Shown: positions 1 to 29,881 of the stretch, one piece after another
Layout: each line of letters starts with the position of its first letter
How positions within the stretch are numbered: position 1 is the first letter of the stretch
NCBI GenBank assembly: GCA_022646745.1
Contig: CP060262.1
Span: 1,890,001-1,922,000, forward strand
Direction: 5' to 3'
DNA from: Planctomycetales bacterium
GTDB lineage: Bacteria; 4484-113; JAFGCY01
Length of the DNA stretch: 32,000 nucleotides
Notes under the pieces: generated by a model
What the model was told of the DNA's origin: nothing
Database searches by the model: none
What the model saw: the letters and a program-made list of their open reading frames with translations, nothing else
Position numbers and translations under genes: made by a program

Positions 1-2737
1 CCGTCTCTGAGAATGAGATCGGCAAGCTCAGTGCTGAGCAGCAGGCACTGCTTTCAGACGCGGGCTGGAACCAGCCCTACATCGTCCCCAAGGCCGGCAC
101 CCCGATCCAGGGCCCGAGCCATGAGATGCTGATGGCACAGCTTCGTGAGATGGCTGAGCGCGGCGTCGAGATGCTGCCCCGCGGCGTCGAGGGAGAAGGC
201 ACGAAGGGAGCCAGCTGGCTGGACCAGCGCGGCTTCAACCCGGGCGTTGACAGTGGCCTTGTGAAGGGCCAGTACAAGCCCGCCGACACCGGCGCCAACG
301 GCGTGCCGGACTTCGGTTGCAACGCCTCCGGTGCGCTGATGGCTGACAACGGCCAGTCCGACATCGAGGACGTGATCTTCGCCTACGGCGGCAGCATGCC
401 GGCCCAGGCGATCAGCTGGGTGGCTGAGGGTCTGTCGACCATCAACCACTTCAACAGCGTCGGTGGTGGTGGTGACGATGCGTACACCGCCGTTTACCAG
501 CTGTTCGCTGACAGCGAGACCGCGAACCCGAGCAACCAGGGCAACAACGACATCGGTGAGATCGGCTACCGTGCCGACCTCGGCCCCTACGGCATCGGTT
601 ACGGCCAGGGCAGCGGCCCCAGCGGCACGCTGTGCGACGGAACCGCCTACGGTGTCCGCAATGCGTTCTGGATGACCTTCAACGAGAAGTTCTTCGCCCT
701 GCCGAGCGGCCAGGCGACTGCCCTGTACAACGTGCTGATCGCCCCCAGCGGTGATGAGGGTGCGGACCAGGTCAGCCCGATGGACACCTCCGCAAACTTC
801 CAGACCTTCTACTTTGGCAACGTGTCCTCCTGCTACGGGGATGCGATGATCGTCGGCATCAACGCAGCTGACAGCGGTTGCGACATGTTCGACGAGGCCT
901 CCAATGCGCCGTGGCAGGACCGTACGGCGGATGGCAACAGCTACCCGAACATCCTGCACAACCCGATCTTCGGCGTGATCCTGGCCCGCTGGGCCGGCGG
1001 CAACGCCAACTCGGACAGCCAGTTCTTCGGCGACGGCAGCTTCCCGAGTGCGGCGAGCATCGTCGGCTGGCCCGTGGCCCGTCCGTTCGCATACAACAAC
1101 GGCGCCGCGCTGCTCAATGCCAACGGTGCCTACTACGCCTTCGGCCAGTTCTTCGAGAAGGGTTTCATGTGGTGGATCGACTACGACCAGAACAGCAACC
1201 CGACCGCGAGCGACGAAGCGCAGATGTACGTCTACGATGGCAACAACACCTTCTGCGAGGGTGAGTACTCCAAGGTCGAGCCCGACGTGTTCTACGGCGG
1301 CGCTGGCGACCTCGGTGTCGGCGTGACCGTTGACGGCGTGCGCTACGGTGCCGGCGACTGGTCCGCCCCGCAGCTGTCCGACGACGGTACCTATTACCAG
1401 ATCGGCATGCTGCTGGACGAGAACACCGGCATCAGCAGCGTGACCATCGCTGCCAGCGCGCACGGCTTCGGCGGTGTGACGGCTGACGGTGCCGATGTGG
1501 GCCACCCCGAGTGGGGCGCCTGCCTGTACAAGCACAGCACATGGTCATGGCGTGACGGTACGGTCACGGCAGCCGGCACGGCCTTCGATCCGAGCCAGTT
1601 CGCCCGTACCCACACCTACAGCAGCAATGCGATCAAGACCAATGTCGAGGGTGTGTACACGATCCGTAACCAGGTCGTGGACGCCGATGACAACATCGCC
1701 TACGGTGACAGCCTTCCGATGCACCTCGGACACGGCGGCGCCGGTGGTGGCGGTGGCGACACCGAAGTCTGGGTCATCCGCAACGACGGCGGTGACTTCC
1801 AGCTCAACCTCGACGCCCTGACCGGCGACCTTGACGCCCTTGGCGTTGGCTACAGCGTGGTCGACTACAGCGCAACCGTCGCTGACGACTTCGCTGCCAA
1901 CCCGAACGCGAAGGTCGCGATCTGGTACCGTGGTGGACCGGGTGGCGCGGGTGAGTCCGCGACCTACACCACCGCCTGGACCAGCGGTGAGATGGACAAC
2001 TACATCCAGCTGATGAGCGACGGCTTCGGCGTGATGCTGATGAGCCAGAACCACGGCTACGATGGAGACCTGTTCTTCACCAACGGCTGGAGTGGCATCT
2101 ACGGTTATGCGACCCTGCCGGCCTCCGTCCCGGATGCCGACCGCCGCATGCCCTGGGCCTCCAGCCTGTGCACCGATGACGGTATCGGTTTCGGTGGAAC
2201 CCTTGGTTTCATCCCGACCGCCCCGAGCAACTTCATCGGTAACCCGAGCGGCGCGAACTTCGGTGCCGACGGTACCAACGCCGCGGAGCGCTACACCGGT
2301 AGTGGTTCCTCGGGTGAGCTGCCGATCAGCTTCGGCATGGCAACCGGCCGCCAGTACTGCGGTATCGGTTACTACAGCTCCTTCTTCGCGGGCTCCTGCG
2401 CAGGTCCGGCCTTCCGTGCCGGTATCGGCCACCAGCCCAACGCGCTTGGCTTCGACCTGGGCTTCCTGTCCTGGGGTAACAGCCAGGCCCCGGATGCCAA
2501 CATCGGCTTCTTCCCGAGCTACAGCCACAGCTTCGGCACCGGCAAGGTGTGGAACGTGGGCTACAGCTGGGCAGGCACCAGTGTGACGGCTTCCGCTTCC
2601 GGCACGATGGACCGCGCCGACCTGCTGAACAACATCCTCGGTTGGCTGGATGACAGCCTGACCTTCGGTGGTGGCGGCGGCGGTGGCGCCGGCTTCGAGG
2701 AGTACGATGGTCCTCCGGAGATCGTCTGCGTGACCCC
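1..2737 (+). repeat. Copy 1 of a >=2.7-kb near-identical intragenic repeat (5' part of the giant lipoprotein genes).
   Basis: The sense-frame protein and several off-frame ORF translations are letter-identical to those at +5356 (e.g. 54-1535 vs 5410-6891, 2062-2586 vs 7418-7942). The only A/B difference I found is T1895 vs C7251 (GCT/GCC, synonymous). The first divergent base is 2738 (g) vs 8094 (c). Confidence 0.9.
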
Positions 2738-4829
2738 GATCGCCTGGGACAAGGTGAACGGTGCTGTGACGCAGGGTACCGCCGGTGTGGGTGGCCAGAA
2801 CTACCCCGACCCGAACGGTTCCAACGTCTTCGGTCCGGATGTGACCCCCGGCTTTGACTACGCTGTTGAGTACGACACCGGCGTCCGCACCCCGGGCGAC
2901 GATGACGGCGGCCTGAATGGCAACGACATGGACTTCCAGTTCCCGTTCTACGGCTTCCTGCAGTGGGACGACACCCTCGGCGCCATCCCCGGCGACGTGG
3001 AGGCTGCTGAGATCATCGATGTCAACTACAGCGGTATCGCCCTGAGCGACATCTCCGCTGACTGGACCAAGTTCTCCGCCCCCTACGGTGGTGTGTTTGA
3101 TCCTTCCGCCCTCGGCCTCCGTCCGGCAGCCGCCTGGTTCCTGACCGAGACCGACAACTTCGGTAACATCAACACCGCCAGCTACGGCGATGCCTTTGGC
3201 CCGAACCTGACCTTCAGCAATGACGACGACCTGGTTGCCACCGAGGCGATCGCGCACTGGGCACAGGGCACGATGTACGGCGGTTCCCCGGCGTACCTCG
3301 CCTGGGCGATGTATCCCGGCCATAAGTCCGTCCAGTTCGACAACGCTGACATCGCCGTGGGTTACTACGGTGAGGGCGACGTGCTGTGGGAGGACTTCAT
3401 CGCCGACCACGACATCCAGGTCGGACGTGACCTGTGGGCCTACCTGCGCAGTGACTACTCCTTCACCACCCCCGGTGAGGGCCGCACGGTTGACTTCGAC
3501 TACAACACCGTATTCGGTTTCAACGGCGACCTGAACCGCAACGGCGTGGCCGGAGAGGCCGCTGACAAGTTCCCGGTGCGTGTCCGCTTCTTCACTGATG
3601 TGGATGCCTACGACGACTACTTCGATGACCTGAACGGTTACCCGAACTTCTGGCCTGATGGCGACTCCTTCATCGAGGGTGGTTGCTACATGGTGGACAA
3701 CGGACTGCCGAACTACCCGGTCAGCATCTTTGACGATTCCGACGAGGATGATCCGAAGGACACCGTCTCCGGCAGTGGCCCGGACTACAACGTCGCCCTG
3801 TACTTCGAGCTGGCCTTCGGCGTCGGCCCGTACGACGTGGAACTCGACTGGGATTACGACTTCATCGGCTGGGGCAACAGCGGTTACACCATGACCCTGC
3901 CCAACAGCCCGTTTGCCAACAATGGCAAGCTTTCCGATGTCGTGAACGTTGACCCGACCCCGGCTGGCGGCGACGGGGACTACTTCTTCGCCCTGCAGGT
4001 GACCGACAGTTCAGTTCCTGCTCGCACGGATGAGTTCTTCTGGCCCGATGCGGTGCCGCTGCAGCCCAGCCTGAGCTACCTTGTGGTGGATGACAGCACG
4101 CAGAGCGGTGACCTGAGCGCCAGCCAGTGCGCCACTGCCCTGACGACCATCTACGGCAGCCCCGTGTCCGTTGTCAACAGTGCCACGCTGAGCCCCGGTG
4201 ACCTGAATGGTTATTCAGTGGTCGTCTGGTGCACCAACCACCGCTTCAACAACTCCGGCGGTACGGGTCCGGGAATTGTCCAGTCTGACTATGACGTGAT
4301 CGCACCGTACATGGACCAGGGTGGTAACCTCGTGATGTTCTGGCCCTGCCAGGGACCATTCAGTGGTACGACGCAGATTTACTACAACCAGGGACAGATC
4401 GACCTGTGCAAGGACTACCTCGGTTACATCAACTCGACCTTCCGGATGTACTACCGCAACGGCACATCCTCAAGCTACGATCCGCACATCACGGATAGCG
4501 GACTGAGTATCGGCCCCGGCGCGAGCAACATGAACTACATTGATCGCAACGGTTCCAACCCCGGATACTACTGCGGATACTTCAATGATTCGGACCTGAC
4601 CGGTTCTGACGCGGCCTGGTCGTTCACGTCCTCCCGCCGGATCATCCAGCGTTACGACTCAAACGGAGCTTCGGAGGGCGGAGTGGCCCTGGTCAACCAG
4701 TTCTACTTCTGGAATTCCGAAGCGACCTCCTCACTGAGCGGTTCCCCGCTTGGTGGCAGTGTCGCAGCGTCCCAGGTGATCATGTTGAAGAACATGCTCA
4801 ACTACATGGACCCGCTGCTGCTGCCCTAG
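1..4829 (+). CDS. Giant secreted lipoprotein, paralog A. 5' end lies outside the window (reading frame 3). Unknown family, C-terminal cassette type 1.
   Basis: The ORF is open from the window edge; codons read from nt 3 (VSENEIGKLSAEQQ...). The ATG at 126 in the ORF track is internal. Nt 1-2737 match nt 5357-8093 of paralog B, which has a lipoprotein signal peptide upstream. Stop is TAG at 4827-4829, followed by a rho-independent terminator. Composition is rich in G/D/N/Y/F/W and poor in K/R, with three poly-Gly linkers. Confidence 0.85.
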   Translation, partial: VSENEIGKLSAEQQALLSDAGWNQPYIVPKAGTPIQGPSHEMLMAQLREMAERGVEMLPRGVEGEGTKGASWLDQRGFNPGVDSGLVKGQYKPADTGANGVPDFGCNASGALMADNGQSDIEDVIFAYGGSMPAQAISWVAEGLSTINHFNSVGGGGDDAYTAVYQLFADSETANPSNQGNNDIGEIGYRADLGPYGIGYGQGSGPSGTLCDGTAYGVRNAFWMTFNEKFFALPSGQATALYNVLIAPSGDEGADQVSPMDTSANFQTFYFGNVSSCYGDAMIVGINAADSGCDMFDEASNAPWQDRTADGNSYPNILHNPIFGVILARWAGGNANSDSQFFGDGSFPSAASIVGWPVARPFAYNNGAALLNANGAYYAFGQFFEKGFMWWIDYDQNSNPTASDEAQMYVYDGNNTFCEGEYSKVEPDVFYGGAGDLGVGVTVDGVRYGAGDWSAPQLSDDGTYYQIGMLLDENTGISSVTIAASAHGFGGVTADGADVGHPEWGACLYKHSTWSWRDGTVTAAGTAFDPSQFARTHTYSSNAIKTNVEGVYTIRNQVVDADDNIAYGDSLPMHLGHGGAGGGGGDTEVWVIRNDGGDFQLNLDALTGDLDALGVGYSVVDYSATVADDFAANPNAKVAIWYRGGPGGAGESATYTTAWTSGEMDNYIQLMSDGFGVMLMSQNHGYDGDLFFTNGWSGIYGYATLPASVPDADRRMPWASSLCTDDGIGFGGTLGFIPTAPSNFIGNPSGANFGADGTNAAERYTGSGSSGELPISFGMATGRQYCGIGYYSSFFAGSCAGPAFRAGIGHQPNALGFDLGFLSWGNSQAPDANIGFFPSYSHSFGTGKVWNVGYSWAGTSVTASASGTMDRADLLNNILGWLDDSLTFGGGGGGGAGFEEYDGPPEIVCVTPIAWDKVNGAVTQGTAGVGGQNYPDPNGSNVFGPDVTPGFDYAVEYDTGVRTPGDDDGGLNGNDMDFQFPFYGFLQWDDTLGAIPGDVEAAEIIDVNYSGIALSDISADWTKFSAPYGGVFDPSALGLRPAAAWFLTETDNFGNINTASYGDAFGPNLTFSNDDDLVATEAIAHWAQGTMYGGSPAYLAWAMYPGHKSVQFDNADIAVGYYGEGDVLWEDFIADHDIQVGRDLWAYLRSDYSFTTPGEGRTVDFDYNTVFGFNGDLNRNGVAGEAADKFPVRVRFFTDVDAYDDYFDDLNGYPNFWPDGDSFIEGGCYMVDNGLPNYPVSIFDDSDEDDPKDTVSGSGPDYNVALYFELAFGVGPYDVELDWDYDFIGWGNSGYTMTLPNSPFANNGKLSDVVNVDPTPAGGDGDYFFALQVTDSSVPARTDEFFWPDAVPLQPSLSYLVVDDSTQSGDLSASQCATALTTIYGSPVSVVNSATLSPGDLNGYSVVVWCTNHRFNNSGGTGPGIVQSDYDVIAPYMDQGGNLVMFWPCQGPFSGTTQIYYNQGQIDLCKDYLGYINSTFRMYYRNGTSSSYDPHITDSGLSIGPGASNMNYIDRNGSNPGYYCGYFNDSDLTGSDAAWSFTSSRRIIQRYDSNGASEGGVALVNQFYFWNSEATSSLSGSPLGGSVAASQVIMLKNMLNYMDPLLLP

Positions 4830-4870
4830 TGCAAGCTGCCTGAGCCTGGTCGGCTGAACTGACCAAACCG

Positions 4871-4900
4871 GCCCCGGAGTCACTGGCTCCGGGGCTTTTT
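4871..4900 (+). terminator. Rho-independent terminator of giant paralog A.
   Basis: Stem gccccggag (4871-4879), loop tcactgg, stem ctccggggc (4887-4895), then ttttt (4896-4900). Confidence 0.8.
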
Positions 4901-5016
4901 CATTTCCGGATGTTGCAGAGAGGAAATTCTCAGCAGATACATATAAGTAAAGTACGGTCAAGTGATCATCTGCTTAATCGGATCAATCGAACCCTTTACC
5001 TTTCCTTAACGATGGG

Positions 5017-5046
5017 GTTATAGTCTAGGTGCACAGCATATAGGTA
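5017..5046 (+). promoter_or_regulatory. Putative promoter and conserved transcript-start block for giant paralog B.
   Basis: GTTATAGT-N6-GCACAGCATATAGGTA sits in an AT-rich island. The same block with the same N6 spacing recurs upstream of paralog C at 15619-15648. TATAGT (5019-5024) is a 5/6 match to the -10 consensus TATAAT. A possible -35, TTTACC, lies at 4995-5000 (N18 spacing). The implied 5' UTR is about 140 nt. Confidence 0.35.
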
Positions 5047-5172: not shown

Positions 5173-8100
5173 ATGAAGACTCATGTGAACTGGTGTAAGC
5201 ACCTCGGGCTAACGCTTGTGGCGCTTACGGTAGTCTTCGTAGCAGCTTCCTGCGGTGGTAACGGCGGTGGTATCTCGGCGAATGTCGAGACCCAGACCGG
5301 TACCTCCAACACCGTGATCGACGGAGGTCGTAACGGTGTTGTATCAGCGGAGCTTACCGTCTCTGAGAATGAGATCGGCAAGCTCAGTGCTGAGCAGCAG
5401 GCACTGCTTTCAGACGCGGGCTGGAACCAGCCCTACATCGTCCCCAAGGCCGGCACCCCGATCCAGGGCCCGAGCCATGAGATGCTGATGGCACAGCTTC
5501 GTGAGATGGCTGAGCGCGGCGTCGAGATGCTGCCCCGCGGCGTCGAGGGAGAAGGCACGAAGGGAGCCAGCTGGCTGGACCAGCGCGGCTTCAACCCGGG
5601 CGTTGACAGTGGCCTTGTGAAGGGCCAGTACAAGCCCGCCGACACCGGCGCCAACGGCGTGCCGGACTTCGGTTGCAACGCCTCCGGTGCGCTGATGGCT
5701 GACAACGGCCAGTCCGACATCGAGGACGTGATCTTCGCCTACGGCGGCAGCATGCCGGCCCAGGCGATCAGCTGGGTGGCTGAGGGTCTGTCGACCATCA
5801 ACCACTTCAACAGCGTCGGTGGTGGTGGTGACGATGCGTACACCGCCGTTTACCAGCTGTTCGCTGACAGCGAGACCGCGAACCCGAGCAACCAGGGCAA
5901 CAACGACATCGGTGAGATCGGCTACCGTGCCGACCTCGGCCCCTACGGCATCGGTTACGGCCAGGGCAGCGGCCCCAGCGGCACGCTGTGCGACGGAACC
6001 GCCTACGGTGTCCGCAATGCGTTCTGGATGACCTTCAACGAGAAGTTCTTCGCCCTGCCGAGCGGCCAGGCGACTGCCCTGTACAACGTGCTGATCGCCC
6101 CCAGCGGTGATGAGGGTGCGGACCAGGTCAGCCCGATGGACACCTCCGCAAACTTCCAGACCTTCTACTTTGGCAACGTGTCCTCCTGCTACGGGGATGC
6201 GATGATCGTCGGCATCAACGCAGCTGACAGCGGTTGCGACATGTTCGACGAGGCCTCCAATGCGCCGTGGCAGGACCGTACGGCGGATGGCAACAGCTAC
6301 CCGAACATCCTGCACAACCCGATCTTCGGCGTGATCCTGGCCCGCTGGGCCGGCGGCAACGCCAACTCGGACAGCCAGTTCTTCGGCGACGGCAGCTTCC
6401 CGAGTGCGGCGAGCATCGTCGGCTGGCCCGTGGCCCGTCCGTTCGCATACAACAACGGCGCCGCGCTGCTCAATGCCAACGGTGCCTACTACGCCTTCGG
6501 CCAGTTCTTCGAGAAGGGTTTCATGTGGTGGATCGACTACGACCAGAACAGCAACCCGACCGCGAGCGACGAAGCGCAGATGTACGTCTACGATGGCAAC
6601 AACACCTTCTGCGAGGGTGAGTACTCCAAGGTCGAGCCCGACGTGTTCTACGGCGGCGCTGGCGACCTCGGTGTCGGCGTGACCGTTGACGGCGTGCGCT
6701 ACGGTGCCGGCGACTGGTCCGCCCCGCAGCTGTCCGACGACGGTACCTATTACCAGATCGGCATGCTGCTGGACGAGAACACCGGCATCAGCAGCGTGAC
6801 CATCGCTGCCAGCGCGCACGGCTTCGGCGGTGTGACGGCTGACGGTGCCGATGTGGGCCACCCCGAGTGGGGCGCCTGCCTGTACAAGCACAGCACATGG
6901 TCATGGCGTGACGGTACGGTCACGGCAGCCGGCACGGCCTTCGATCCGAGCCAGTTCGCCCGTACCCACACCTACAGCAGCAATGCGATCAAGACCAATG
7001 TCGAGGGTGTGTACACGATCCGTAACCAGGTCGTGGACGCCGATGACAACATCGCCTACGGTGACAGCCTTCCGATGCACCTCGGACACGGCGGCGCCGG
7101 TGGTGGCGGTGGCGACACCGAAGTCTGGGTCATCCGCAACGACGGCGGTGACTTCCAGCTCAACCTCGACGCCCTGACCGGCGACCTTGACGCCCTTGGC
7201 GTTGGCTACAGCGTGGTCGACTACAGCGCAACCGTCGCTGACGACTTCGCCGCCAACCCGAACGCGAAGGTCGCGATCTGGTACCGTGGTGGACCGGGTG
7301 GCGCGGGTGAGTCCGCGACCTACACCACCGCCTGGACCAGCGGTGAGATGGACAACTACATCCAGCTGATGAGCGACGGCTTCGGCGTGATGCTGATGAG
7401 CCAGAACCACGGCTACGATGGAGACCTGTTCTTCACCAACGGCTGGAGTGGCATCTACGGTTATGCGACCCTGCCGGCCTCCGTCCCGGATGCCGACCGC
7501 CGCATGCCCTGGGCCTCCAGCCTGTGCACCGATGACGGTATCGGTTTCGGTGGAACCCTTGGTTTCATCCCGACCGCCCCGAGCAACTTCATCGGTAACC
7601 CGAGCGGCGCGAACTTCGGTGCCGACGGTACCAACGCCGCGGAGCGCTACACCGGTAGTGGTTCCTCGGGTGAGCTGCCGATCAGCTTCGGCATGGCAAC
7701 CGGCCGCCAGTACTGCGGTATCGGTTACTACAGCTCCTTCTTCGCGGGCTCCTGCGCAGGTCCGGCCTTCCGTGCCGGTATCGGCCACCAGCCCAACGCG
7801 CTTGGCTTCGACCTGGGCTTCCTGTCCTGGGGTAACAGCCAGGCCCCGGATGCCAACATCGGCTTCTTCCCGAGCTACAGCCACAGCTTCGGCACCGGCA
7901 AGGTGTGGAACGTGGGCTACAGCTGGGCAGGCACCAGTGTGACGGCTTCCGCTTCCGGCACGATGGACCGCGCCGACCTGCTGAACAACATCCTCGGTTG
8001 GCTGGATGACAGCCTGACCTTCGGTGGTGGCGGCGGCGGTGGCGCCGGCTTCGAGGAGTACGATGGTCCTCCGGAGATCGTCTGCGTGACCCCCATCTCC

Positions 8101-10014: not shown

Positions 10015-10043
10015 GGAACTGAGCCTGATCGACTGAATCGATT

Positions 10044-10073
10044 GCCCCCGGGGCATGTCCCCGGGGGCTTTTT
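10044..10073 (+). terminator. Rho-independent terminator of giant paralog B.
   Basis: Stem gcccccgggg (10044-10053), loop catgt, stem ccccgggggc (10059-10068), then ttttt (10069-10073). A second 8-bp hairpin follows at 10079-10100 (cagttgcc-ttttct-ggcaactg). Confidence 0.85.
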
Positions 10074-10110
10074 CATTCCAGTTGCCTTTTCTGGCAACTG
10101 CGACGCCGGA

Positions 10111-11550: not shown

Positions 11551-11573
11551 CAGGCTCCCTGCTGTGTTAGAAT
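11551..11573 (+). promoter_or_regulatory. Putative extended -10 promoter for FG-GAP/ASPIC gene 1.
   Basis: caggctccctgcTGtgtTAGAAT. A nearly identical 21-23 nt block, caggctctgcTGtgcTAGAAT, occurs at 21903-21923 upstream of FG-GAP gene 2. TAGAAT (11568-11573) is a 5/6 match to the -10 consensus. Confidence 0.4.
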
Positions 11574-20587: not shown

Positions 20588-20618
20588 GCTGCCTCGAGCC
20601 TGATCGACTGAATCGATT

Positions 20619-20648
20619 GCCCCCGGGGCCTGTCCCCGGGGGCTTTTT
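20619..20648 (+). terminator. Rho-independent terminator of giant paralog C.
   Basis: Stem gcccccgggg (20619-20628), loop cctgt, stem ccccgggggc (20634-20643), then ttttt. Homologous to 10044-10073, including the flanking gagcctgatcgactgaatcgatt. Confidence 0.85.
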
Positions 20649-20684
20649 CATGAATAATTGAAGTAAAAAGGCCGTCTAAGTAAC

Positions 20685-21899
20685 ATGCCCCCGATCCATC
20701 CCGCGATCCGTAACATATCCGTAGCCATCCTGCTGGGCCTGCTGGCTGGCTGTCCCGCCGGGCAAACCGGTGAAAGCGGTTCCACCAATGTGGATGCCGC
20801 CACTGCAGATGCAAACCCCGCAGCCGATGCTGAGAAGCAGGCTGATGCGGGAACAGATGCACAGGCTGCCCCAGCCGGGCAGGAAAACATGACCTGGCGC
20901 GCCTACATCGATCCGAAGATGTCGATGGAGGAGATCGAGGCGCTCAGTGAGGAGGATGCCCGCGCCAAGCTGGAAGAGCTGGGTGTGCCATTCGAGGCCT
21001 TCAACTTCCACGAGGCGATTGAAATGGACCCGCTCGAGCTGTGCGCGCTGTTCCTGCAGGCCGGCATGCCGGTGGACAGCCCCAACATGGCAGGCGTATC
21101 CCCGCTGCAGGCAGCCTCATACCAGCAGAAGATAGAGCATATGAAGTTGTTCATTGAGCATGGCGCGGACATCAACTACGAGGACCCGCGCTTCCGGGCC
21201 ACCCCGGTGGACTTCGCCGTTGGCAGTGGCAACATGGAGGTGCTGCAGATCCTGCTGGACCAGGGGGCCGACCCCGCCGGCGGAAGCCAGTCGCGCCCGA
21301 TCCTGATTGACGCGATCGAGTCCGGCAGCCTGGAGATGTTCAACTTCATCTATGGGAAGTTCCCGGATGTGACAGTGACCGACCGCACCGGCCAGGGTAC
21401 GCTGATGAACGCCTGCCTGACGGGCCACCTGGATATCGCGCAGCGACTGGTGGAGCTCGGGGCGGAGATCAACCAGATTGAGCCGCAGGGAGGCACTCCG
21501 CTGGCGGCGGCGGCCTACCGCGGCAACTGGGACGTGTTCGACTTCCTGCTGCAGCATGGTGCGGACCCGATGCAGAGCTACCGCGGCAACCGCAACCTGC
21601 TGTTCGAGTTCGGCTACCACCAGGACTATCCGCATGAGCTGGCCGAACAGCTGATCGAACAGGGCATGGACATCAACCAGCAGGATGAACGCAGTGGAGT
21701 AACGCCACTGATCAATGCGGCAAACAATGCGAACATGGACCTCGTGAAGCTGTTGCTGGACCATGATGCGGACCCTGACAAGCGCGATGTGAATGGCATG
21801 AGTGCCTGTGACTTCGCGAAGTTCACGGAGAACGGCGACATGGTGCTGCTGTTCAGCAAGTACGGCATCACCAGTGAGCGGGAGTTCCCCCAGCAGTAG
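20685..21899 (+). CDS. Ankyrin-repeat lipoprotein (404 aa), paralog 2.
   Basis: N-terminus MPPIHPAIRNISVAILLGLLAGCPAGQ has a canonical LAGC lipobox. An acidic A/D-rich linker is followed by ankyrin-like repeats (GVSPLQAASYQQKIEHMKLFIEHGADINYED, ATPVDFAVGSGNMEVLQILLDQGADP, GTLMNACLTGHLDIAQRLVELGAEIN, GTPLAAAAYRGNWDVFDFLLQHGADP, VTPLINAANNANMDLVKLLLDHDADPDKRD). Only distantly similar to the 10141-11409 product. Confidence 0.85.
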   Translation: MPPIHPAIRNISVAILLGLLAGCPAGQTGESGSTNVDAATADANPAADAEKQADAGTDAQAAPAGQENMTWRAYIDPKMSMEEIEALSEEDARAKLEELGVPFEAFNFHEAIEMDPLELCALFLQAGMPVDSPNMAGVSPLQAASYQQKIEHMKLFIEHGADINYEDPRFRATPVDFAVGSGNMEVLQILLDQGADPAGGSQSRPILIDAIESGSLEMFNFIYGKFPDVTVTDRTGQGTLMNACLTGHLDIAQRLVELGAEINQIEPQGGTPLAAAAYRGNWDVFDFLLQHGADPMQSYRGNRNLLFEFGYHQDYPHELAEQLIEQGMDINQQDERSGVTPLINAANNANMDLVKLLLDHDADPDKRDVNGMSACDFAKFTENGDMVLLFSKYGITSEREFPQQ

Positions 21900-21902
21900 C
21901 CA

Positions 21903-21923
21903 CAGGCTCTGCTGTGCTAGAAT
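21903..21923 (+). promoter_or_regulatory. Putative extended -10 promoter for FG-GAP/ASPIC gene 2.
   Basis: caggctctgcTGtgcTAGAAT, with TAGAAT at 21918-21923. Shares the block found at 11551-11573. No terminator lies between the ank2 stop (21899) and this site. Confidence 0.4.
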
Positions 21924-22019: not shown

Positions 22020-25000
22020 ATGCGACGGATACTGATTATCTGCGGCCTGGCGCTGATGCTGGCCGCCTCATGCGCTGACAAGCAGCAGGCCGGCAGCGCC
22101 GGCAAGCCCGCTGACTCCACCCGGCAGCAGACAGCCCAGGTTGATGGTGCATCGCTCTATGCCGACTATCCAGCCAGCGACGCCCTGGTGGAACAGCAGG
22201 CCCTGCCCGCCCCCGGGGGCAGCGGCAGCTTCGTCAAGCTTGAACCCTCGGAAACCGGGATGGACTTCGTCGGCCTGGCTGAGAGCCGTGAGCTGCTGCT
22301 GGATGACGTCGGTTCACAGGCCGGCATGGCGGCGGCGGACTACGACGGCGATGGCGACATCGACATCTACCTCTGTGGCATAGAGAATGACAACCAGCTG
22401 TACCGCAATGAGGGCGACTGGAAGTTCACCGACGTGACGGACGAAGTGAACCCGGAGCTGCGCGTGAGCGGTGAGCTAGCTGGCAGCGCGGTGTTCTTCG
22501 ACATCAATGGCGACCGGCTGCTGGACCTCTACGTCGCGGTGCGCGGCGGGAAGAACCGGCTGTTCATCAACGGTGGCGACGGCAGCTTCAGCGAGCAGGC
22601 CGCGCAGTACGGGCTTGACACGGAGCGCAGCACGATCGTGAGCGCGATCTTTGACCTTGACAACGACGGCGACCTGGACATCTACAACGCCAACAACCGC
22701 AAGGGACGCAACGAGGACGGCATGGTGGAGGAGGAGCGTGGCAACGCGCGCTACTTCGGCTTCTTCCTCAACCCGGAGACCGGCGAGCGAATCCTGGACG
22801 ATGAGTCAAGCCAGACGCACTACATGGACAATTCCGGCAAGATCCGCCTGAAGCCCGACAGCGATGAGTTCTTCATCAACAAGGGTGAGGGCAAGTTTGT
22901 CAACGACGCCTCCACGATCGGCGTGCGGCCTGACGGCTGGTCACTGAATGCACTGGCCTGTGACTTCAACAACGACGGCTGGATCGACCTGCAGGTCAGC
23001 GGCGACTTCGACACACCCGACTGGTACTACCTGAACAATGGCAACGGCTACCTCAAGGAGATGGGCCGTACGATGCTGCGTGTCAACTCCTTCTTCGGGA
23101 TGGGCAGCGACGCCGGCGACCTGGACCGCAACGGCTGGATGGACTACATGGTGGGCGACATGTCCGCCACCGGCTACAAGGACAGCAAGAAGCAGAGCGG
23201 CGACATGAACATCTCGCGCTATGAGCTGTCCAACTTCACGCCGCAGCCGAACATGCGCAACACGGTGATGCTGAACCGCGGTGACGGCTGGATGAGCGAG
23301 GCCGCCGCCTTCCTCGGGGTGAAGAGCTCCGACTGGACCTGGAGCGTGCGCCTGGCGGACCTCGACAGCGACGGCCTGCTGGACATCCTCGCCACCAACG
23401 GCTACCTGAATTCCTCGATTGAATATGACGTGCAGCGCCACATCAAGGAAATGCGCGAGCAGGGAGCCAGCCAGGAGGAGATTGACAACTACTGGCTGTC
23501 CACCCCGGGGCTCAAGACGGATGACATCATTTTCACGGCGAGCGAGCCGCTGAACTACGGGAAGGCCCCGGACAACTGGGGGATCCATGACCAGGCGGTG
23601 TCCTGCGGCTGCATCCTGCAGGACCTGGACGGTGACGGCGACCTCGACTTCGTCGTAAACAACACGAACGAGCAGCTCGGTGTGTACCGCAATGAGGTCG
23701 GCAGCGGCAACCAGGTGCTGATCGACCTGCGCCAGGACGGCCCGAACCATGAGGCGATCGGCGCGCGTGTGGTCGCCTGGTGCGGTGGTGAGCAGTACAT
23801 GCAGGACGTGATCCTTACTCGCGGCTATGCCAGCAGCGAAAGCAGCCGGATCCACCTCGGGCTCGGCAGGCATGAGAAGATTGACGAGCTGTGGATCCGC
23901 TGGCCCGGTAACCAGGCCGAGGTGCTGCGCGACCTTGACGTGAACATGCACTACACGATCACGCGTGGCAGCCAGATGAAAGACGTGTCGCAGCCGGCAG
24001 CCCGGCAGACCCTGTTCAGCCAGGAGGAACTGGCATGGGAGCAACAGGAGGCGGATACCTTTGACGCGGAGTTCGACGCCGAGCCGCTGCTGCCTGTGCG
24101 ACGCAGCACGCTTGGCACGGGACTCGGCGTGGCGGACATCAACCTAGACGGGCAGCTGGATGTGTACTTCACCGGTGCGGAGGGACAGGCCGGCAAGCTG
24201 TACCTCGGCCGCGGGGACGGCACGCTGGTGGGCAGCCCGATGCTTGACCAGGTGGTGGAGCCGCGCCAGGAGAACATGGAACCGCTGCTGTTCGAAGCCA
24301 ATGGCGACGGCCGGCCGGACCTGCTGCTGACCAGCGGCAGCAACGAGGAGCCCGGCGGCAGCAACTACTACATCGACAGGCTGGTCATGAACGAGGAGGA
24401 TGGCTTCAAGCTGGGGGTGATGTCCGTGGCCCCGGCTTCCTCCGGCAGCGCCTGTGCCTCAGACATTGACAATGACGGCGACCTCGACCTGTTCATCGCG
24501 GGCCGGCAGAAGCCCGGCGAGTACCTGCGCCCCGAGGTTTCGAACATCCTTGAGAATGACGGTACCGGCAGGTTCACGCTGGCCACTGGCCGGATCGCTC
24601 CCGGCATCACTGAGGTCGGCCCGATCTCCGATGCGATCTTCGCAGATCTCAACGGGGACGGGCGGCAGGACCTGGTGCTGGCGGTCGAGTTCGGCAGCAT
24701 CGAGTGGTGGGCCAACAATGACGGCCTGCTGGTGCGCCAGGGCCCGGTCAGTGCAAGCGGGACCTGGCAGTCGCTGGCAAGCGGCGACTTCGACAATGAC
24801 GGCGACATGGACCTGCTGGCCGGCAACTACGGCCTGAACACGAAGTACCACCCGAGTGCCGACAAGCCCTACCTGATCATCGCGGATGACTTTGACAACA
24901 ATGGCACACGCGACCTGGTTGAGGTCAAGTTCGGCAGCGACGGCACGCTGCTGCCGGGACGCGGCCGCAGCTGCTCCGGTTACGCAATCAACACGATCCC

Positions 25001-25754
25001 ACAGAAGTTCCCGACCTGGGAGATGTTCGCCGACGCCACGCTCGAGGATGTTTACGGGCCGATCGAGGAAGTAGCTGAGCGTTACTCCGCGGAGGAAGTG
25101 CGCAGCATGCTGCTCGTGAATGACGGGCATGGCAGTTTCAGTGCCCAGCCCCTGCCAAAGGAAGCGCAGTACAGCATCGTGTTCGGCATGGCGACCGGCG
25201 ACTTTGACAACGATGGCAACCTGGACGCCTGGCTGAACCAGAACTACCGCAACTCGCAGCCGGAGGAGACCCGCTGGCTGACGGGCTACGGCTGCCTGCT
25301 GCTCGGTGATGGCCAGGGCGGATTCAGAAATGTCGAGCACCTTGATTCCGGCATCCTGCTGAATGCCGAGGGCCGTGGCGCTGTGGCCGCGGACCTGAAT
25401 GGCGACCAGTGCCTGGACATCGTGATGAGCGTCAGCTCGGCGCACCCCCAGGTGGCCTGGAGCCAGCCGGGCAGCAGCCAAGGCCGTGGCCTGCTGGTAT
25501 CAGTGGCCGGGCCGGCAGGCAACCCGACGGGCGTTGGTGCGAAGCTCAGCCTTGAACTGGACAACGGCAGCGTGCTGCACCGTGAGGTGCAGGCCGGGCA
25601 TACCTTCCTGTCCAGTTACGTGGGGCCGCAGCACTTCGGCATTCCGGATGGCAGCAAGCCGCTGAAGCTTACTGTCAGCTGGCCGGACGGCGGCAGCACT
25701 GAACTGGCGGATTTCGGCGATGTCTCGAAGGTGATCGTCAGCCGCGGAAACTAG
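22020..25754 (+). CDS. FG-GAP/VCBS repeat + ASPIC/UnbV domain lipoprotein, CRTAC1-like (1244 aa), paralog 2.
   Basis: ATG at 22020 follows GAGAGGAAGGA. N-terminus MRRILIICGLALMLAASCADKQ has signal peptide and lipobox. It has the same two-fold [FG-GAP propeller repeats + UnbV/ASPIC] architecture as 11708-15430 and is collinear with it. Confidence 0.9.
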   Translation: MRRILIICGLALMLAASCADKQQAGSAGKPADSTRQQTAQVDGASLYADYPASDALVEQQALPAPGGSGSFVKLEPSETGMDFVGLAESRELLLDDVGSQAGMAAADYDGDGDIDIYLCGIENDNQLYRNEGDWKFTDVTDEVNPELRVSGELAGSAVFFDINGDRLLDLYVAVRGGKNRLFINGGDGSFSEQAAQYGLDTERSTIVSAIFDLDNDGDLDIYNANNRKGRNEDGMVEEERGNARYFGFFLNPETGERILDDESSQTHYMDNSGKIRLKPDSDEFFINKGEGKFVNDASTIGVRPDGWSLNALACDFNNDGWIDLQVSGDFDTPDWYYLNNGNGYLKEMGRTMLRVNSFFGMGSDAGDLDRNGWMDYMVGDMSATGYKDSKKQSGDMNISRYELSNFTPQPNMRNTVMLNRGDGWMSEAAAFLGVKSSDWTWSVRLADLDSDGLLDILATNGYLNSSIEYDVQRHIKEMREQGASQEEIDNYWLSTPGLKTDDIIFTASEPLNYGKAPDNWGIHDQAVSCGCILQDLDGDGDLDFVVNNTNEQLGVYRNEVGSGNQVLIDLRQDGPNHEAIGARVVAWCGGEQYMQDVILTRGYASSESSRIHLGLGRHEKIDELWIRWPGNQAEVLRDLDVNMHYTITRGSQMKDVSQPAARQTLFSQEELAWEQQEADTFDAEFDAEPLLPVRRSTLGTGLGVADINLDGQLDVYFTGAEGQAGKLYLGRGDGTLVGSPMLDQVVEPRQENMEPLLFEANGDGRPDLLLTSGSNEEPGGSNYYIDRLVMNEEDGFKLGVMSVAPASSGSACASDIDNDGDLDLFIAGRQKPGEYLRPEVSNILENDGTGRFTLATGRIAPGITEVGPISDAIFADLNGDGRQDLVLAVEFGSIEWWANNDGLLVRQGPVSASGTWQSLASGDFDNDGDMDLLAGNYGLNTKYHPSADKPYLIIADDFDNNGTRDLVEVKFGSDGTLLPGRGRSCSGYAINTIPQKFPTWEMFADATLEDVYGPIEEVAERYSAEEVRSMLLVNDGHGSFSAQPLPKEAQYSIVFGMATGDFDNDGNLDAWLNQNYRNSQPEETRWLTGYGCLLLGDGQGGFRNVEHLDSGILLNAEGRGAVAADLNGDQCLDIVMSVSSAHPQVAWSQPGSSQGRGLLVSVAGPAGNPTGVGAKLSLELDNGSVLHREVQAGHTFLSSYVGPQHFGIPDGSKPLKLTVSWPDGGSTELADFGDVSKVIVSRGN

Positions 25755-25780: not shown

Positions 25781-25808
25781 GGGAGTGCCTGCGGGCGCTC
25801 CCATTTTT
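25781..25808 (+). terminator. Rho-independent terminator of FG-GAP gene 2.
   Basis: Stem gggagtgc (25781-25788), loop ctgcgg, stem gcgctccc (25795-25802, one G-U pair), then attttt. Confidence 0.7.
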
Positions 25809-26094: not shown

Positions 26095-29000
26095 ATGGGC
26101 CGCAATCTCCTTGTTGGATGCCTTGGCATCCTGATACTGTGCTGTTCCTGCACGAAAGGCACGCAGCAAAGCGCTGACGGCGGAAATGCCACTGGAAAGC
26201 ATGATGCAGGCAAGCAGCTGTCAGCCGCGGTTCCCTATGCCGGCTACCCTGCAAGTGATGCGAATGTCGAGGCCAGTCCGCTTGCGGCAGGCAGCGGCGG
26301 TGGCAGCTTCACACAGCTGGACAGCGCGGAGTCCGGCATCAGCTTCGTCAGTGAAGCGCTGGACAATGACATGATCGTCGATGACATCGGCAGCCAGGCC
26401 GGTATGGCTGCGGCGGATTATGACGGCGACGGCGACATAGACATCTACCTCTGCGGTATCTCGAATGACAACCTGCTGTTCCGCAATGACGGCGGAATGA
26501 AGTTCACAGACGTGACGGACGAGGCCGGAGAAGGCCTGCGGCTGGCCGGTGAACTGGCTGAGAGTGCCGTGTTCTTCGACATCAATGCCGATGGGCGGCT
26601 GGACCTGTATGTCGCGGTGCGCGGCGGGGCCAACCGGCTGTTCGTCGCCGGTGAGGACGGCCGCTTCACGGAGAATGCCGCGGCCTACGGGCTGGCTAGC
26701 GAGCGCAGCACTATCGTGAGTGCGGTGTTCGACATTGACAACGACGGCGACCTGGACATCTACAATGCCAACAACCGGCTGGGGCGCCACGGCAGCGGCC
26801 TGCTGGAGACCGTGCTCGGCGAAAAGCCGGACATCATGTACATCTTCGACGAGGAGACCGGCGAGGTCAGCCTCGGCGGCTCATCGGCCGACCAGTTCTA
26901 CATGGACCCCGTGTTCAAGGCGCGCCTGAAGCCGGACTCGGATGAGATGTACATCAACAACGGCACCGGCTCCTTCGAGGACCGCGCTGCCGAGCTGGGC
27001 ATCCGGCCGCTGGGCTGGTCGCTCAACGCACTGGCCTGCGACTTCAACAATGACGGCTGGATGGACCTCGAGGTGTCCGGCGACTTCGACACGCCGGACT
27101 GGTACTACCTGAACGATGGCAACGGCCGGCTGGTGGAACACGGCAAGGAGATGTGCCGCATCAACTCATTCTTCGGGATGGGCAGCGATGCCGGCGACCT
27201 GGACCGCAACGGCTGGATGGACTACATGGTGGGCGACATGTCGCCCTCCGGCTACAAGGACGGCAAGAAGCAGAGTGGCGACATGTATGAGTGGCGCCAG
27301 GAGCTGGCGACATTCGAACCGCACCAGAACATGCGCAACACGGTGATGCTGAACCGCGGCGGCGGCTGGATGAGCGAGGCCGGCGCGCTGCTCGGCGTGA
27401 AGAGCACCGACTGGACCTGGAGCATCCGCATCGCGGACCTCAACAGCGACGGCATCCACGAGATCCTTGCGACCAACGGCTACATCAGCAAGGCGATCGA
27501 GGTCGATGAGCGCAACCGCATCAAGTCCATGATCCAGGCCGGCCGCAGCCAGAAGGAGATCGAGGACTACATCGTCTCGCTCGGGCCCTTCGTGACGGAT
27601 GACATCATCTTCACCGCCAGCGAGCTGCTGAAGTACTCCAAGGCGCCGGACAACTGGGGCCTGCATGACAACGCGATCTCATGCGGCGCCAGCCTGCAGG
27701 ACTACGACGGCGATGGCGACCTAGACATGATAATCAACAACACCAATGCCGAGGCCGGGGTCTACCGCAATGACCTTGACAACGGCAGCCGCGTGCTGGT
27801 CGACCTGCGCCAGGATGGCCCGAACCAGGAGGCGGTCGGCGCCCGTGTTGTGGCGGTCTGCGGCGACGAGCAGTTCATGCAGGACGTGATCATCGCCCGC
27901 GGCTATGCCTCGACGGAAAGCAGCCGGATCCACCTCGGGCTCGGCGAACACCAGAAGATCGACGCGCTGTGGATCCGCTGGCCCGGCAACCAGGCGGAGG
28001 TGCTGCGCGACCTGGACGTGAACACTCACTACACGATCACGCGCGGCAGCCAGCTGACGGACGTGTCAGTGCTGCCTGAGCACAGCCCGTTGTTCAGCCA
28101 GGAGGAACTGGGCTGGAACCAGGTAGAGGTTGACACCTTCGAGGCTGAGTTCGAGGCCGAGCCGCTGCTGCCGGTGCGCCGCAGCACGCTGGGCACCGGT
28201 GTCGGCGTGGCGGACATCAATGCCGACGGCCAGCTCGACGTCTACTTCGCCGGGCCGGCGGGGCAGGCCGGCAAGCTGTACTACGGCCGTGATGGCAAGC
28301 TCGTGGCCTCGCCGATGCTGGAGAAGGCCGTGGATGAACGTCCGGAGAGCATGGGCGTGCTGTTCTTCGAAGCCAACGGCGACGGCCGGCCGGACCTGCT
28401 GCTGTCCAGCGGCGGCAATGAAGCTTCGGCGGGCAGCACGGAGTACATCGACCGCCTGATGTACAACGAGGGCGAGAAGTTCAAGCTGGCCGGCATGCAA
28501 ATTGGGGCGGAATCCTCCGGCAGTGCCTGCGCCTCGGACATTGACAACGATGGTGACCTCGACCTGTACATCGCCTGCCGGCAGAAGCCCGGCGAGTACC
28601 TGCGCCCCGGCGTCTCGCACATCATGCTGAATGACGGCGAAGGCAACATGAGCATGGCCACCGGACGGATCGCCCCGGGACTGGCGGAGACCGGCCCGGT
28701 GTCGGATGCGATCTTCACTGATGTCAACGGTGACGGGCGGCAGGACCTCGTGCTTGCAATCGAGTTCGGCAGCGTCGAGTGGTGGGCCAACAATGACGGC
28801 CTGCTGGTGCGCCAGGGCCCGATCAGCCCGAGCGGCACCTGGCAGTCGCTGGCCAGCGCGGACTTCGACAATGACGGCGACATGGACCTGCTTGCCGGCA
28901 ATTACGGCCTGAACACCAAGTACCACCCGAGCGCTGAGAAGCCCTACCTGATCATCGCGGATGACTTCGACAACAATGGCACGCGTGACCTGGTGGAGGT

Positions 29001-29823
29001 CAAGTTCGGCAGCGACGGCACCCTGCTGCCGGGGCGCGGCCGTTCCTGCAGCGGCTACGCGATCGCCACCGTGCCGCAGCAGTTCCCGACCTGGACCGAA
29101 TTCGCCAATGCCTCACTGGAGGACATCTACGGCCCGGTGGACCAGGTGGCTGAGCGCTTCTCCGCCGAGGAGGTACGCAGCTGCGTGTTCCTCAACGACG
29201 GCGCGGGCAGCTTCAGCATGCAGCCCCTGCCGAAGGAGGCGCAGTACAGTATCGTGTTCGGCATGGCGACCGGTGACTTTGACAACGATGGCAACATGGA
29301 TGCCTGGCTGAACCAGAACTACCGCAACACCCAGCCGGAGGAGACCCGCTGGCTGATGGGTTACGGCTGCCTGCTGCTGGGCGATGGCCAGGGCGGCTTC
29401 CGCAATGTGGAGCACATGGATTCCGGCATCCTGCTGAATGCCGAGGGCCGCGGTGCCGTGGCCGCCGACCTGAATGGAGACAACTGCCTGGACATCCTGA
29501 TGAGTGTGAGCAACAGCAAGCCGCAGCTGGCCTGGGGCCAGCCGGGCAACATGGCGGGCCGGGGCCTGATGGCCAGCCTCAGTGGCCCGGCCGGCAACCC
29601 GGCGGGCATCGGCGCGAAGCTCAGCCTGGAGCTGGACAATGGCACTGTGCTGCACCGCGAGGTGCTGGGCGGCCATACCTACCTGTCGAGCTACGTCGGC
29701 CCGCAGCACTTCGGAATTCCGGCCGGCAGCAAGCCGGTCAGGCTGACGGTGAGCTGGCCGGATGGAGGCAGCTCAGAAGTAACGGAATTCGCCGAGCCCT
29801 GGAATGTGAACGTGGCCCGCTGA
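26095..29823 (+). CDS. FG-GAP/VCBS repeat + ASPIC/UnbV domain lipoprotein, CRTAC1-like (1242 aa), paralog 3.
   Basis: ATG at 26095 follows GAGGAAAGA. N-terminus MGRNLLVGCLGILILCCSCTKG has signal peptide and lipobox. By eye it is closest to paralog 2, with long identical runs such as KFGSDGTLLPGRGRSCSGYAI and LLLGDGQGGFRNVEH. Confidence 0.9.
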   Translation: MGRNLLVGCLGILILCCSCTKGTQQSADGGNATGKHDAGKQLSAAVPYAGYPASDANVEASPLAAGSGGGSFTQLDSAESGISFVSEALDNDMIVDDIGSQAGMAAADYDGDGDIDIYLCGISNDNLLFRNDGGMKFTDVTDEAGEGLRLAGELAESAVFFDINADGRLDLYVAVRGGANRLFVAGEDGRFTENAAAYGLASERSTIVSAVFDIDNDGDLDIYNANNRLGRHGSGLLETVLGEKPDIMYIFDEETGEVSLGGSSADQFYMDPVFKARLKPDSDEMYINNGTGSFEDRAAELGIRPLGWSLNALACDFNNDGWMDLEVSGDFDTPDWYYLNDGNGRLVEHGKEMCRINSFFGMGSDAGDLDRNGWMDYMVGDMSPSGYKDGKKQSGDMYEWRQELATFEPHQNMRNTVMLNRGGGWMSEAGALLGVKSTDWTWSIRIADLNSDGIHEILATNGYISKAIEVDERNRIKSMIQAGRSQKEIEDYIVSLGPFVTDDIIFTASELLKYSKAPDNWGLHDNAISCGASLQDYDGDGDLDMIINNTNAEAGVYRNDLDNGSRVLVDLRQDGPNQEAVGARVVAVCGDEQFMQDVIIARGYASTESSRIHLGLGEHQKIDALWIRWPGNQAEVLRDLDVNTHYTITRGSQLTDVSVLPEHSPLFSQEELGWNQVEVDTFEAEFEAEPLLPVRRSTLGTGVGVADINADGQLDVYFAGPAGQAGKLYYGRDGKLVASPMLEKAVDERPESMGVLFFEANGDGRPDLLLSSGGNEASAGSTEYIDRLMYNEGEKFKLAGMQIGAESSGSACASDIDNDGDLDLYIACRQKPGEYLRPGVSHIMLNDGEGNMSMATGRIAPGLAETGPVSDAIFTDVNGDGRQDLVLAIEFGSVEWWANNDGLLVRQGPISPSGTWQSLASADFDNDGDMDLLAGNYGLNTKYHPSAEKPYLIIADDFDNNGTRDLVEVKFGSDGTLLPGRGRSCSGYAIATVPQQFPTWTEFANASLEDIYGPVDQVAERFSAEEVRSCVFLNDGAGSFSMQPLPKEAQYSIVFGMATGDFDNDGNMDAWLNQNYRNTQPEETRWLMGYGCLLLGDGQGGFRNVEHMDSGILLNAEGRGAVAADLNGDNCLDILMSVSNSKPQLAWGQPGNMAGRGLMASLSGPAGNPAGIGAKLSLELDNGTVLHREVLGGHTYLSSYVGPQHFGIPAGSKPVRLTVSWPDGGSSEVTEFAEPWNVNVAR

Positions 29824-29851
29824 TAGCGGCAGATTCAACCTGATCTATCGA

Positions 29852-29881
29852 GGGGAGCGTCCATGTGATGCTCCCCTTTTT
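29852..29881 (+). terminator. Rho-independent terminator of FG-GAP gene 3.
   Basis: Stem ggggagc (29852-29858) pairs with gctcccc (29870-29876), then ttttt (29877-29881). Confidence 0.8.

Follow-up and report, generated by a model that had tools for sequence, protein, structure and literature searches.

The 32,000-nucleotide stretch analysed here (the window), taken from contig CP060262.1 of a metagenome-assembled genome (MAG) labelled 'Planctomycetales bacterium' (NCBI locus tags H7A35_07550/07560), holds an array of paralogous genes for presumed surface proteins, which duplication and gene conversion have moulded. Eight consecutive same-strand genes encode predicted lipoproteins of three kinds: giant proteins (gA, gB, gC), ankyrin-repeat proteins (ank1, ank2) and proteins of the CRTAC1/ASPIC type (fg1, fg2, fg3). 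An earlier note on this DNA had given their order as gA / gB-ank1-fg1 / gC-ank2-fg2-fg3, which the listing and translation of open reading frames (ORFs) confirms, and had taken giant, ank and fg together as a functional unit. When other genomes are compared, the combination of giant, ankyrin and FG-GAP/ASPIC genes is not a conserved multi-gene system; it is a feature of one narrow clade. What is left standing is a rare family of large lipoproteins, limited to poorly known uncultured lineages (UBP7/'Planctomycetales' MAGs). On balance, and with moderate confidence, we read the giants as abundant, separately expressed lipoproteins of the envelope, coat or adhesin type, with a common anchoring or assembly core and differing distal modules.

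Evidence for gene conversion comes from the distribution of differences along the giant genes. Over their first ~2.7 kb the paralogues of the window are 99-100% identical in nucleotide sequence: gA and gB are separated there by one synonymous difference, and gC departs from both at 25 positions, scattered and mostly synonymous. In all pairs divergence rises smoothly from 5' to 3'; overall, gA is 93-94% identical to gB or gC, and gB is 85% identical to gC. The giants of a related genome, MAG AC1.30, resemble one another in the same way (91-100% nucleotide identity, mostly 96-100%), whereas any giant of the window compared with any giant of AC1.30 gives 79-89%. Further genomes hold the same mosaic. 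Three tandem giants on a contig from ENA (P0005, P0006 and P0007) are 85-96% identical for ~1000 amino acids (aa) and 55-80% thereafter, and on another contig two giants that lie 1 Mb apart (P0018 and P0021) agree at 93-100% over 600 aa, after which identity falls to about 40%. The giant family as a whole thus has its core homogenised by gene conversion, and concerted evolution of the core is seen in at least four genomes. The tails retain positional orthology between the window genome and AC1.30: the gB tail matches AC1.30 giant X1 at 83-84% of nucleotides, and gC matches giant X2 at 87% of nucleotides in their last common stretch, just before the tail. Gene conversion would keep the paralogues of a genome near identical over the 5' 2-4 kb, with tails and 3' ends staying distinct.

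The tails fall into classes. The A-type tail (~255 aa in gA) recurs in P0009, in P0017 and at the start of long tails; the B-type tail occurs in gB (~197 aa, 9421-10011), gC, P0002 and P0008, and has invariant Cys, His and Asp positions. Other classes exist, and P0010-12 have no tail. The last 200-255 codons are unrelated between gA and gB or gC, and the B-type tails of gB and gC are 35% identical as protein. A profile search of a set of 5.8 billion proteins returned no other protein with a B-tail. One long tail (P0018) contains a PQQ_2 propeller and that of P0005 a weak SBBP match; a 'Rosetta-stone' link between these propellers and the FG-GAP proteins was sought with hhalign, which found nothing, and the idea that the A-type tail is a second copy of an alpha/beta module of the core is unsupported, with an hhalign probability of only 11%.

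Directly after the giant stop codon stands a new RNA element, a family-specific covarying hairpin and terminator outside Rfam. Its sequence runs from cUGAGcCUGA through a hairpin of 5-6 bp (loop CUGAA) to GCCCCCGGGG-loop-CCCCGGGGGC and a closing T-run. Copies occupy this position three times in the window, three times in locus L001, once each in L002, L003, L004, L008 and L009, and twice in L012 (AC1.30), although giants that bear it are only 32-41% identical and their tails not homologous. In the alignment 97% of cells are paired, the small helix has four pairs out of six with changes on both sides, none of 500 shuffles reaches the observed covariation score, and the pairing is lost when the partners are slid. 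A covariance model (R1) was trained on these 13 copies; applied to 770 kb of fetched sequence, it gave 14 matches above 60 bits, all 14 directly after a giant stop codon and one of them, in L010, outside the training set; over the same 770 kb there was no comparable match away from giants. No Rfam family was matched at gathering thresholds, the best sub-threshold match reaching 21.3 bits against 49.5. Conservation is also higher in the element than in the coding tail that precedes it: 55 of 56 bases are common to the gB and gC copies (a 56-bp repeat, 98%), against the 35% of their tails. It may stabilise the mRNA of a highly expressed long transcript, may give rise to a small RNA derived from the 3' untranslated region (3'-UTR), or may serve as a distal homology arm for the exchange of tail cassettes. 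A degenerate copy (30 bits) lies at 3599-3682 of L013, ~550 nt upstream of a giant; the sequence ahead of it has no recognisable giant tail, and this copy may be the relic of a lost upstream copy.

Each giant gene appears to be self-contained at its 5' end as well. In ten loci an extended -10 box, TGTTATA(C/A)T (TGTTATAMT), lies upstream of the giants and is followed by a leader of 130-200 nt and an AGGAG ribosome-binding site; the gC box, TGTTATACT, is conserved upstream of giants in nine other loci. For gB, the promoter-like site with -10 box GGTTATAGT is followed by some 150 nt of leader and by an AGGAG at 5163. The genes fg1 (CTGCTGTGTTAGAAT) and fg2 (CTGCTGTGCTAGAAT) have a box of their own, CTGCTGTGyTAGAAT, whose inner part TGTTAGAAT (TGyTAGAAT) also precedes the fg genes of L008 and L012. 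Strong intrinsic terminator hairpins follow gA, gB, gC, fg1, fg2 and fg3 (Table 1), and a terminator hairpin sought in the ank-fg intervals of the window was absent. Given these terminators and separate promoter-like boxes, the island is probably not a single operon, as far as promoters and terminators can be predicted from sequence. Start codons were picked by signal peptide and AGGAG ribosome-binding site. The starts of the longest ORFs at 5077, 10042, 11564 and 15650 are unlikely to be the true ones, and the TTG at 10042, which opens the long ank1 ORF, falls within the gB terminator hairpin.

Whether order implies function was judged from the contexts of giant homologues at 20 loci (L001-L020), which were searched by tblastn with ank1, ank2, fg1 and fg2 over flanks of up to 10 kb; Pfam scans and clustering of all flanking ORFs agree with the tblastn result. 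Giant-ank-fg adjacency occurs only in the window genome, L008 and L012. In L012 the order is giant-ank1'-fg1'-giant-ank2'-fg2'-antisigma-sigma, and both blocks of the window have positional orthologues there; L008 holds one copy, with a giant 80% identical and the order fg / giant-ank-fg. Giant homologues at 26-41% identity (L001-L007, L009, L013-L020) have no ank or FG-GAP/ASPIC neighbour up to 10 kb away, nor does L010, the second giant locus of AC1.30; none lies either in the flank upstream of the giant in L011, a close relative with a contig that breaks off inside that gene. In the reverse direction, an ank or giant neighbour was found at 0 of the 63 metagenomic loci that encode FG-GAP/ASPIC relatives (identity 43% or less). 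The earlier argument from kept gene order therefore stands in so far as the order recurs in the window, L008 and L012, and falls in that about 15 other giant loci lack it; both the neighbourhood of the giants outside this clade and the reverse check speak against coupling as a unit. The three-protein system is not general, and in the narrow clade it amounts to a juxtaposition of separately expressed surface-protein genes.

The two blocks are nonetheless related by descent. The description of them as two copies of one triad holds for the block, which is indeed present twice, and fails for recent duplication: fg1, fg2 and fg3 are 64-71% identical in aa sequence and ank1 and ank2 only 25%, so that the giant-ank-fg blocks are old duplicates and not recent copies of one block. 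Between window and AC1.30 orthologues, identity is 99% for a neighbouring sigma factor, 81% for its anti-sigma factor, 77-79% for fg and 49-56% for ank, ank changing about three times faster than fg. Applied to a 66% fg paralogue pair, this roughly threefold rate leads one to expect ~30% for ank, near the observed 25%. Within the clade, the giant-ank-fg block was probably duplicated as a unit, before the split of the window genome from AC1.30. In the sequence of events that we propose, ankyrin and double CRTAC1-like lipoprotein genes would have landed after B-type-tail giants in one narrow clade, with the block duplication preceding the divergence of the two genomes; ank and fg would be co-resident, fast-evolving surface lipoproteins and not obligate partners of the giants.

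The giants themselves form a rare, uncharacterised lipoprotein family that, on present searches, has no described kin. A profile of the first 1000 residues found 135 matches among 1.84 billion representatives, and the family resolves into 21 clusters at 90% identity, with lengths of 1350-2170 aa, a conserved core of about 1400 aa and an exchangeable C-terminal tail. The composition agrees with the earlier description of an acidic, G/D-rich protein with poly-Gly linkers (G 14.5%, D 8.8%, Cys-poor; linkers at ORF residues 247-250, 672-679 and 983-990). Among 22 aligned giants the lipobox Cys is invariant in 22/22; the alignment also has a very conserved segment directly after the linker (EDEIGSLPAWQQELLSDPGWNQPYI), many invariant W/G/D/Y residues and three invariant Cys. 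The claim that the giant maps to no described family has held up: Pfam and NCBIfam searches with the whole protein and five sub-domains, at E up to 10, gave no family and a sole sub-threshold match to TY-Chap3; PDB sequence searches with the giant profile and single domains gave no match; and Foldseek, run with two AlphaFold2 (AF2) models against PDB and with an N-terminal model against BFVD, returned only generic Ig/FN3-like sandwiches at TM-scores below 0.15. An LGFP-repeat-like motif seen by eye around 'LGWPV...FEKGFIWWIDYD' was dropped, Pfam having failed to detect it. The models (pLDDT 68 and 59) are mostly beta, with confident Ig-like sandwiches and a Rossmann-like beta-alpha-beta module that spans ~300 residues (about 645-955 of the mature protein); they suggest a core made of a conserved N-terminal segment, beta-rich domains of Ig/PKD-like kind and that one Rossmann-like alpha/beta module of ~300 aa. 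The alpha/beta module recurs alone as the C-terminal domain of secreted PKD proteins (P0053, P0063, P0066, P0072 and others), some of which have weak dockerin-like matches; its occurrence alone in secreted proteins marks it as an independent, unnamed extracellular module.

Export and lipid anchoring are predicted for all three protein types. In 7/7 products whose N-terminus lies inside the window a hydrophobic signal is followed by Cys (examples are VAASC-GG, LYASC, LLYSC, LLAGC, LAASC and LCCSC); the lipobox is canonical in ank2 (LLAGC), and the other products have A-S-C or Y-S-C variants. The N-terminus of gA is cut off by the window edge, and its full-length form, P0003, retains the invariant Cys of the giant family. 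Pfam domains of the S-layer anchoring kind, such as SLH, are absent from the giant, and anchoring would go through the lipid-modified Cys. All eight products are strongly acidic, with net charges of about -135 (giants), -105 (fg) and -40 (ank). To judge from these features, the three types are acidic proteins of the exported, lipid-anchored type that are presumably located at the surface. By their Pfam matches ank1 and ank2 are ankyrin-repeat proteins (Ank_2 at 128.7 and 125.4 bits, the cut-off being 27.3; E about 1e-37), and each fg has 11-12 FG-GAP_3 stretches (247-255 bits) with two UnbV_ASPIC domains (94-108 bits), the fg profile also matching human CRTAC1 (PDB 9etn) at E=2.8e-16.

Table 1. 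Positions of genes, predicted transcription signals and RNA elements in the window.
Feature	Positions	Strand	Details
gA, giant lipoprotein	1-4829	+	5' end cut by window edge; open frame from base 3; full-length product P0003 (NCBI H7A35_07550), 1669 aa, with identical tail sequence
3' element after gA	4829-4911	+	CUGAA-loop hairpin, GC-rich terminator, T-run; R1 68.9 bits
gA terminator	4870-4896		Strong intrinsic terminator hairpin
gB promoter-like site	4995-5024	+	TTTACC-18-TATAGT; -10 box at 5016-5024
gB, giant lipoprotein	5176-10014	+	1612 aa; equals P0001
3' element after gB	10008-10083	+	GAUCGA-CUGAA-UCGAUU hairpin and terminator of 10 G-C pairs; R1 78.6 bits
gB terminator	10044-10068		Strong intrinsic terminator hairpin; ten G-C pairs
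ank1, ankyrin-repeat lipoprotein	10141-11409	+	422 aa; Pfam Ank_2 E=1.3e-37; signal and LYASC
fg1 extended -10-like promoter box	11559-11573	+	Common to fg2 in the window
fg1, double CRTAC1-like lipoprotein	11705-15430	+	FG-GAP/VCBS and UnbV_ASPIC, twice; 1241 aa; Pfam
fg1 terminator	15454-15483		Strong intrinsic terminator
gC extended -10 box	15618-15626	+	Conserved upstream of other giants
gC, giant lipoprotein	15755-20587	+	1610 aa
3' element after gC	20583-20658	+	R1 76.9 bits
gC terminator	20619-20643		Strong intrinsic terminator hairpin
ank2, ankyrin-repeat lipoprotein	20685-21899	+	404 aa; canonical lipobox LLAGC; Pfam
fg2 extended -10-like promoter box	21909-21923	+	
fg2, double CRTAC1-like lipoprotein	22020-25754	+	1244 aa; Pfam
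fg2 terminator	25781-25802		Strong intrinsic terminator
fg3, double CRTAC1-like lipoprotein	26095-29823	+	1242 aa; Pfam; no counterpart in AC1.30
fg3 terminator	29850-29878		Strong intrinsic terminator
Anti-sigma factor	30122-30883	-	Convergent with island
ECF sigma factor	30880-31497	-	Convergent with island

Taken together, a strong-looking promoter, long leader, consensus ribosome-binding site and 3' hairpin with terminator of its own, a lipid anchor, acidity, Ig/PKD-like content and uniform cores fit giants that serve as lipoproteins of the envelope, coat or adhesin type. The window would then hold an island peculiar to its lineage, with eight genes that are expressed separately and encode acidic exported lipoproteins, in which each giant gene is an autonomous unit running from the TGTTATAMT box, through leader and AGGAG, to the family-specific hairpin and GC-rich terminator. 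The surface location, high expression and function ascribed to the giants are deductions from sequence, and several points weigh against them: the designation as coat or adhesin draws solely on anatomy and composition; codon bias, tried as a proxy for expression and dropped as not discriminating, does not set the giants apart; the AF2 models are mediocre and leave the tail unmodelled, so that a catalytic domain could have been missed; an ank gene follows 5/5 B-type-tail giants with a readable downstream flank and does not follow giants with other tails; and the retention of both giant-ank-fg blocks in two genomes is also compatible with real functional coupling.

An alternative, the earlier note's proposal narrowed to this clade, is that giant, ankyrin lipoprotein and CRTAC1-like propeller form one surface complex for adhesion or ligand capture. 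The order found twice in the window and kept in AC1.30 (L012) and L008 speaks for it; the low identity of the ank paralogues fits co-duplication with fg once the faster rate of ank is allowed for, and all products bear the same compartment signals. It has to contend, however, with the terminator of 10 G-C pairs between giant and ank, the conserved promoter box that fg1 and fg2 each have, the gA and AC1.30 L010 giants that do without ank or fg, an fg3 that has neither giant nor ank of its own, and the want of any association elsewhere, whether at giants (about 15 loci) or at fg relatives (63 loci). We consider this complex possible, if on the unlikely side.

A more ambitious version of the envelope reading would make the giants the major, S-layer-like coat lipoproteins of a candidate phylum, with a gene-converted core, C-terminal modules that can be swapped between the core and the 3' hairpin, a 3' element that is a new functional RNA (an mRNA stabiliser or a 3'-UTR-derived regulator), and, in the clade of the window, ank and propeller proteins accessory to B-type tails; as a whole, we rate it unlikely. 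The signs that point to a major coat protein are indirect: a strong-looking promoter, the long leader, a 3' hairpin of stabiliser type and an acidic, Cys-poor make-up.

Quite unlikely, in our judgement, is a locus akin to those for polysaccharide utilisation, with novel surface proteins for glycan binding or hydrolysis in the giants, accessory binders in the propellers, and control by the neighbouring sigma and anti-sigma factors of the extracytoplasmic function (ECF) class. The attraction of this proposal lies in the ECF pair, which is conserved beside giants and convergent to them in the window (30122-31497, minus strand), in L012 (20297-21666) and in the distant L002 (15934-17306), where the sigma factor is 73.5% identical and the giant only 35%; weak Foldseek similarity to glycoside-hydrolase accessory domains and the sharing of the alpha/beta module with PKD/dockerin-like secreted proteins point the same way. 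Yet Pfam and NCBIfam scans of the giant found no catalytic family, the window has no TonB-dependent or SusD-like genes, and the Foldseek TM-scores lie below 0.15. The sigma gene is preceded by an ECF-like motif, GGAAC-N17-GTCT (31506-31531), that occurs nowhere else in the window, and control of the island by the neighbouring ECF sigma factor was dropped on that account.

A constant core with a variable C-terminal tail also invites comparison with polymorphic toxins, the tail being the effector and the downstream exported ankyrin lipoprotein its immunity protein or partner; ankyrin immunity proteins offer a precedent (PMC3482391), ank follows all five B-type-tail giants whose downstream flank is visible, and the B-tails have their invariant Cys, His and Asp positions. 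This we hold to be very improbable. The Pfam/NCBIfam searches already described found no known trafficking, pre-toxin or toxin domain; gA is followed by a terminator and gB, with no downstream partner gene; a strong terminator separates giant from ank; no other protein with a B-tail was found; and the tails keep both their positional orthology and much of their sequence between genomes (81-83% aa identity for the gB tail), the supposed immunity protein diverging much faster (49-56%). Least credible of all is mis-assembly or a collapsed repeat in the MAG as the source of the near-identical giant 5' halves, as the single nucleotide difference between gA and gB over about 2.7 kb and the frameshifted giant ORFs of AC1.30 might suggest, for the scattered, mostly synonymous differences of gC, the smooth 5'-to-3' gradient in all pairs and the recurrence of tandem or homogenised giants in independent assemblies (L001, L005-7, L008, L012 and a 2.7-Mb ENA contig) argue against it.

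Around the giants other genes recur. More giants stand beside giants (three and a split fourth in L001, two in L005-L007), and an unannotated quartet of membrane-protein genes recurs beside them in L005/6, L007 and L010. Just upstream of the giant in L005 (265-9878), L007 (4436-9836) and L010 (1261-9445), which represent three lineages, a run of 4-6 genes alternates polytopic membrane proteins (7-10 predicted transmembrane segments) with proteins that have a single N-terminal transmembrane segment; Pfam and NCBIfam gave no match for this run, and further upstream L007 and L010 have PQQ_2 propeller genes. In L002 a 994-aa lipoprotein gene (17657-20641) is divergent from the sigma gene, and a relative of its product (31% over 340 aa) is encoded just upstream of the giant at L019 (8979-9917); the 994-aa lipoprotein is possibly a further recurrent giant neighbour. 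In AC1.30 the giants are split into several ORFs by frameshifts (L012 1-4272 and 10001-14765; L010 9896-15015), and the neighbouring 3.7-kb fg genes are intact; the frameshifts could mean that the genes are decaying into pseudogenes, or that repeated sequence was polished wrongly. Within the window, a tandem 7-mer repeat (CAGGGAA x 7.1, 31624-31673) lies in the divergent intergenic region, ~130-175 nt ahead of the start of the ECF sigma gene, and a further lipoprotein-type ORF (MIKLYRFLLDVLLVAGLTVLVSGC...) begins on the plus strand at about 31910-32000 and continues past the window end. Taxonomic labels conflict, the window genome and some relatives being given as Planctomycetales, a near-identical relative as UBP7 and one match as Firmicutes; probably the lineage is UBP7-like and no true planctomycete. 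Saline activated sludge (HKST) and the AC1.30 sample are the sources of the related MAGs.

If the giants are the main envelope proteins, they would define the cell surface of these organisms, and the family would offer a clean natural case of modular surface proteins maintained by recombination, together with a new cis-acting RNA element.

Parts of the island invite comparison with systems already described. By domain content, fg1-3 are members of the CRTAC1/ASPIC-UnbV family, sharing its FG-GAP/VCBS propeller repeats followed by UnbV_ASPIC, in an unusual form: each consists of two tandem propeller-plus-ASPIC modules (~1240 aa) and is predicted to be lipid-anchored, and the nearest relatives outside the clade are at most 43% identical. 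We know of no established function for this family in bacteria. Exported ankyrin-repeat proteins are familiar from bacteria, periplasmic AnkB of Pseudomonas being one example. The Imm-ank proteins are ankyrin immunity proteins of polymorphic toxin systems, planctomycetes included (PMC3482391). Like these, the ank proteins of the window carry repeats behind a signal peptide and are encoded beside a large protein with a variable C-terminus; unlike them, they are predicted to be lipoproteins, they have a long acidic linker, their genes are set apart from the giant gene by a terminator, no toxin domain is encoded nearby, and they evolve very fast (25% identity between paralogues, 45-56% between close genomes).

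For the 3' element, stabilising 3' stem-loops, or positive retroregulators, and 3'-UTR-derived small RNAs are known classes. It differs from them in matching no Rfam family and in being specific to one protein family, and resembles them as a conserved hairpin with an intrinsic terminator directly after the stop codon that is more conserved than the adjacent coding sequence. For the giants, the sap S-layer genes of Campylobacter fetus are the natural comparison, a surface multigene family whose conserved 5' and variable 3' regions are kept by recombination. The giants differ in being predicted lipoproteins in which no S-layer anchoring domain was detected and, since each has a promoter of its own, in having no single invertible promoter. 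They share with the sap genes a large, acidic, Cys-poor and secreted product, a long leader and a strong terminator, and they too are same-strand paralogues with near-identical 5' and divergent 3' regions.

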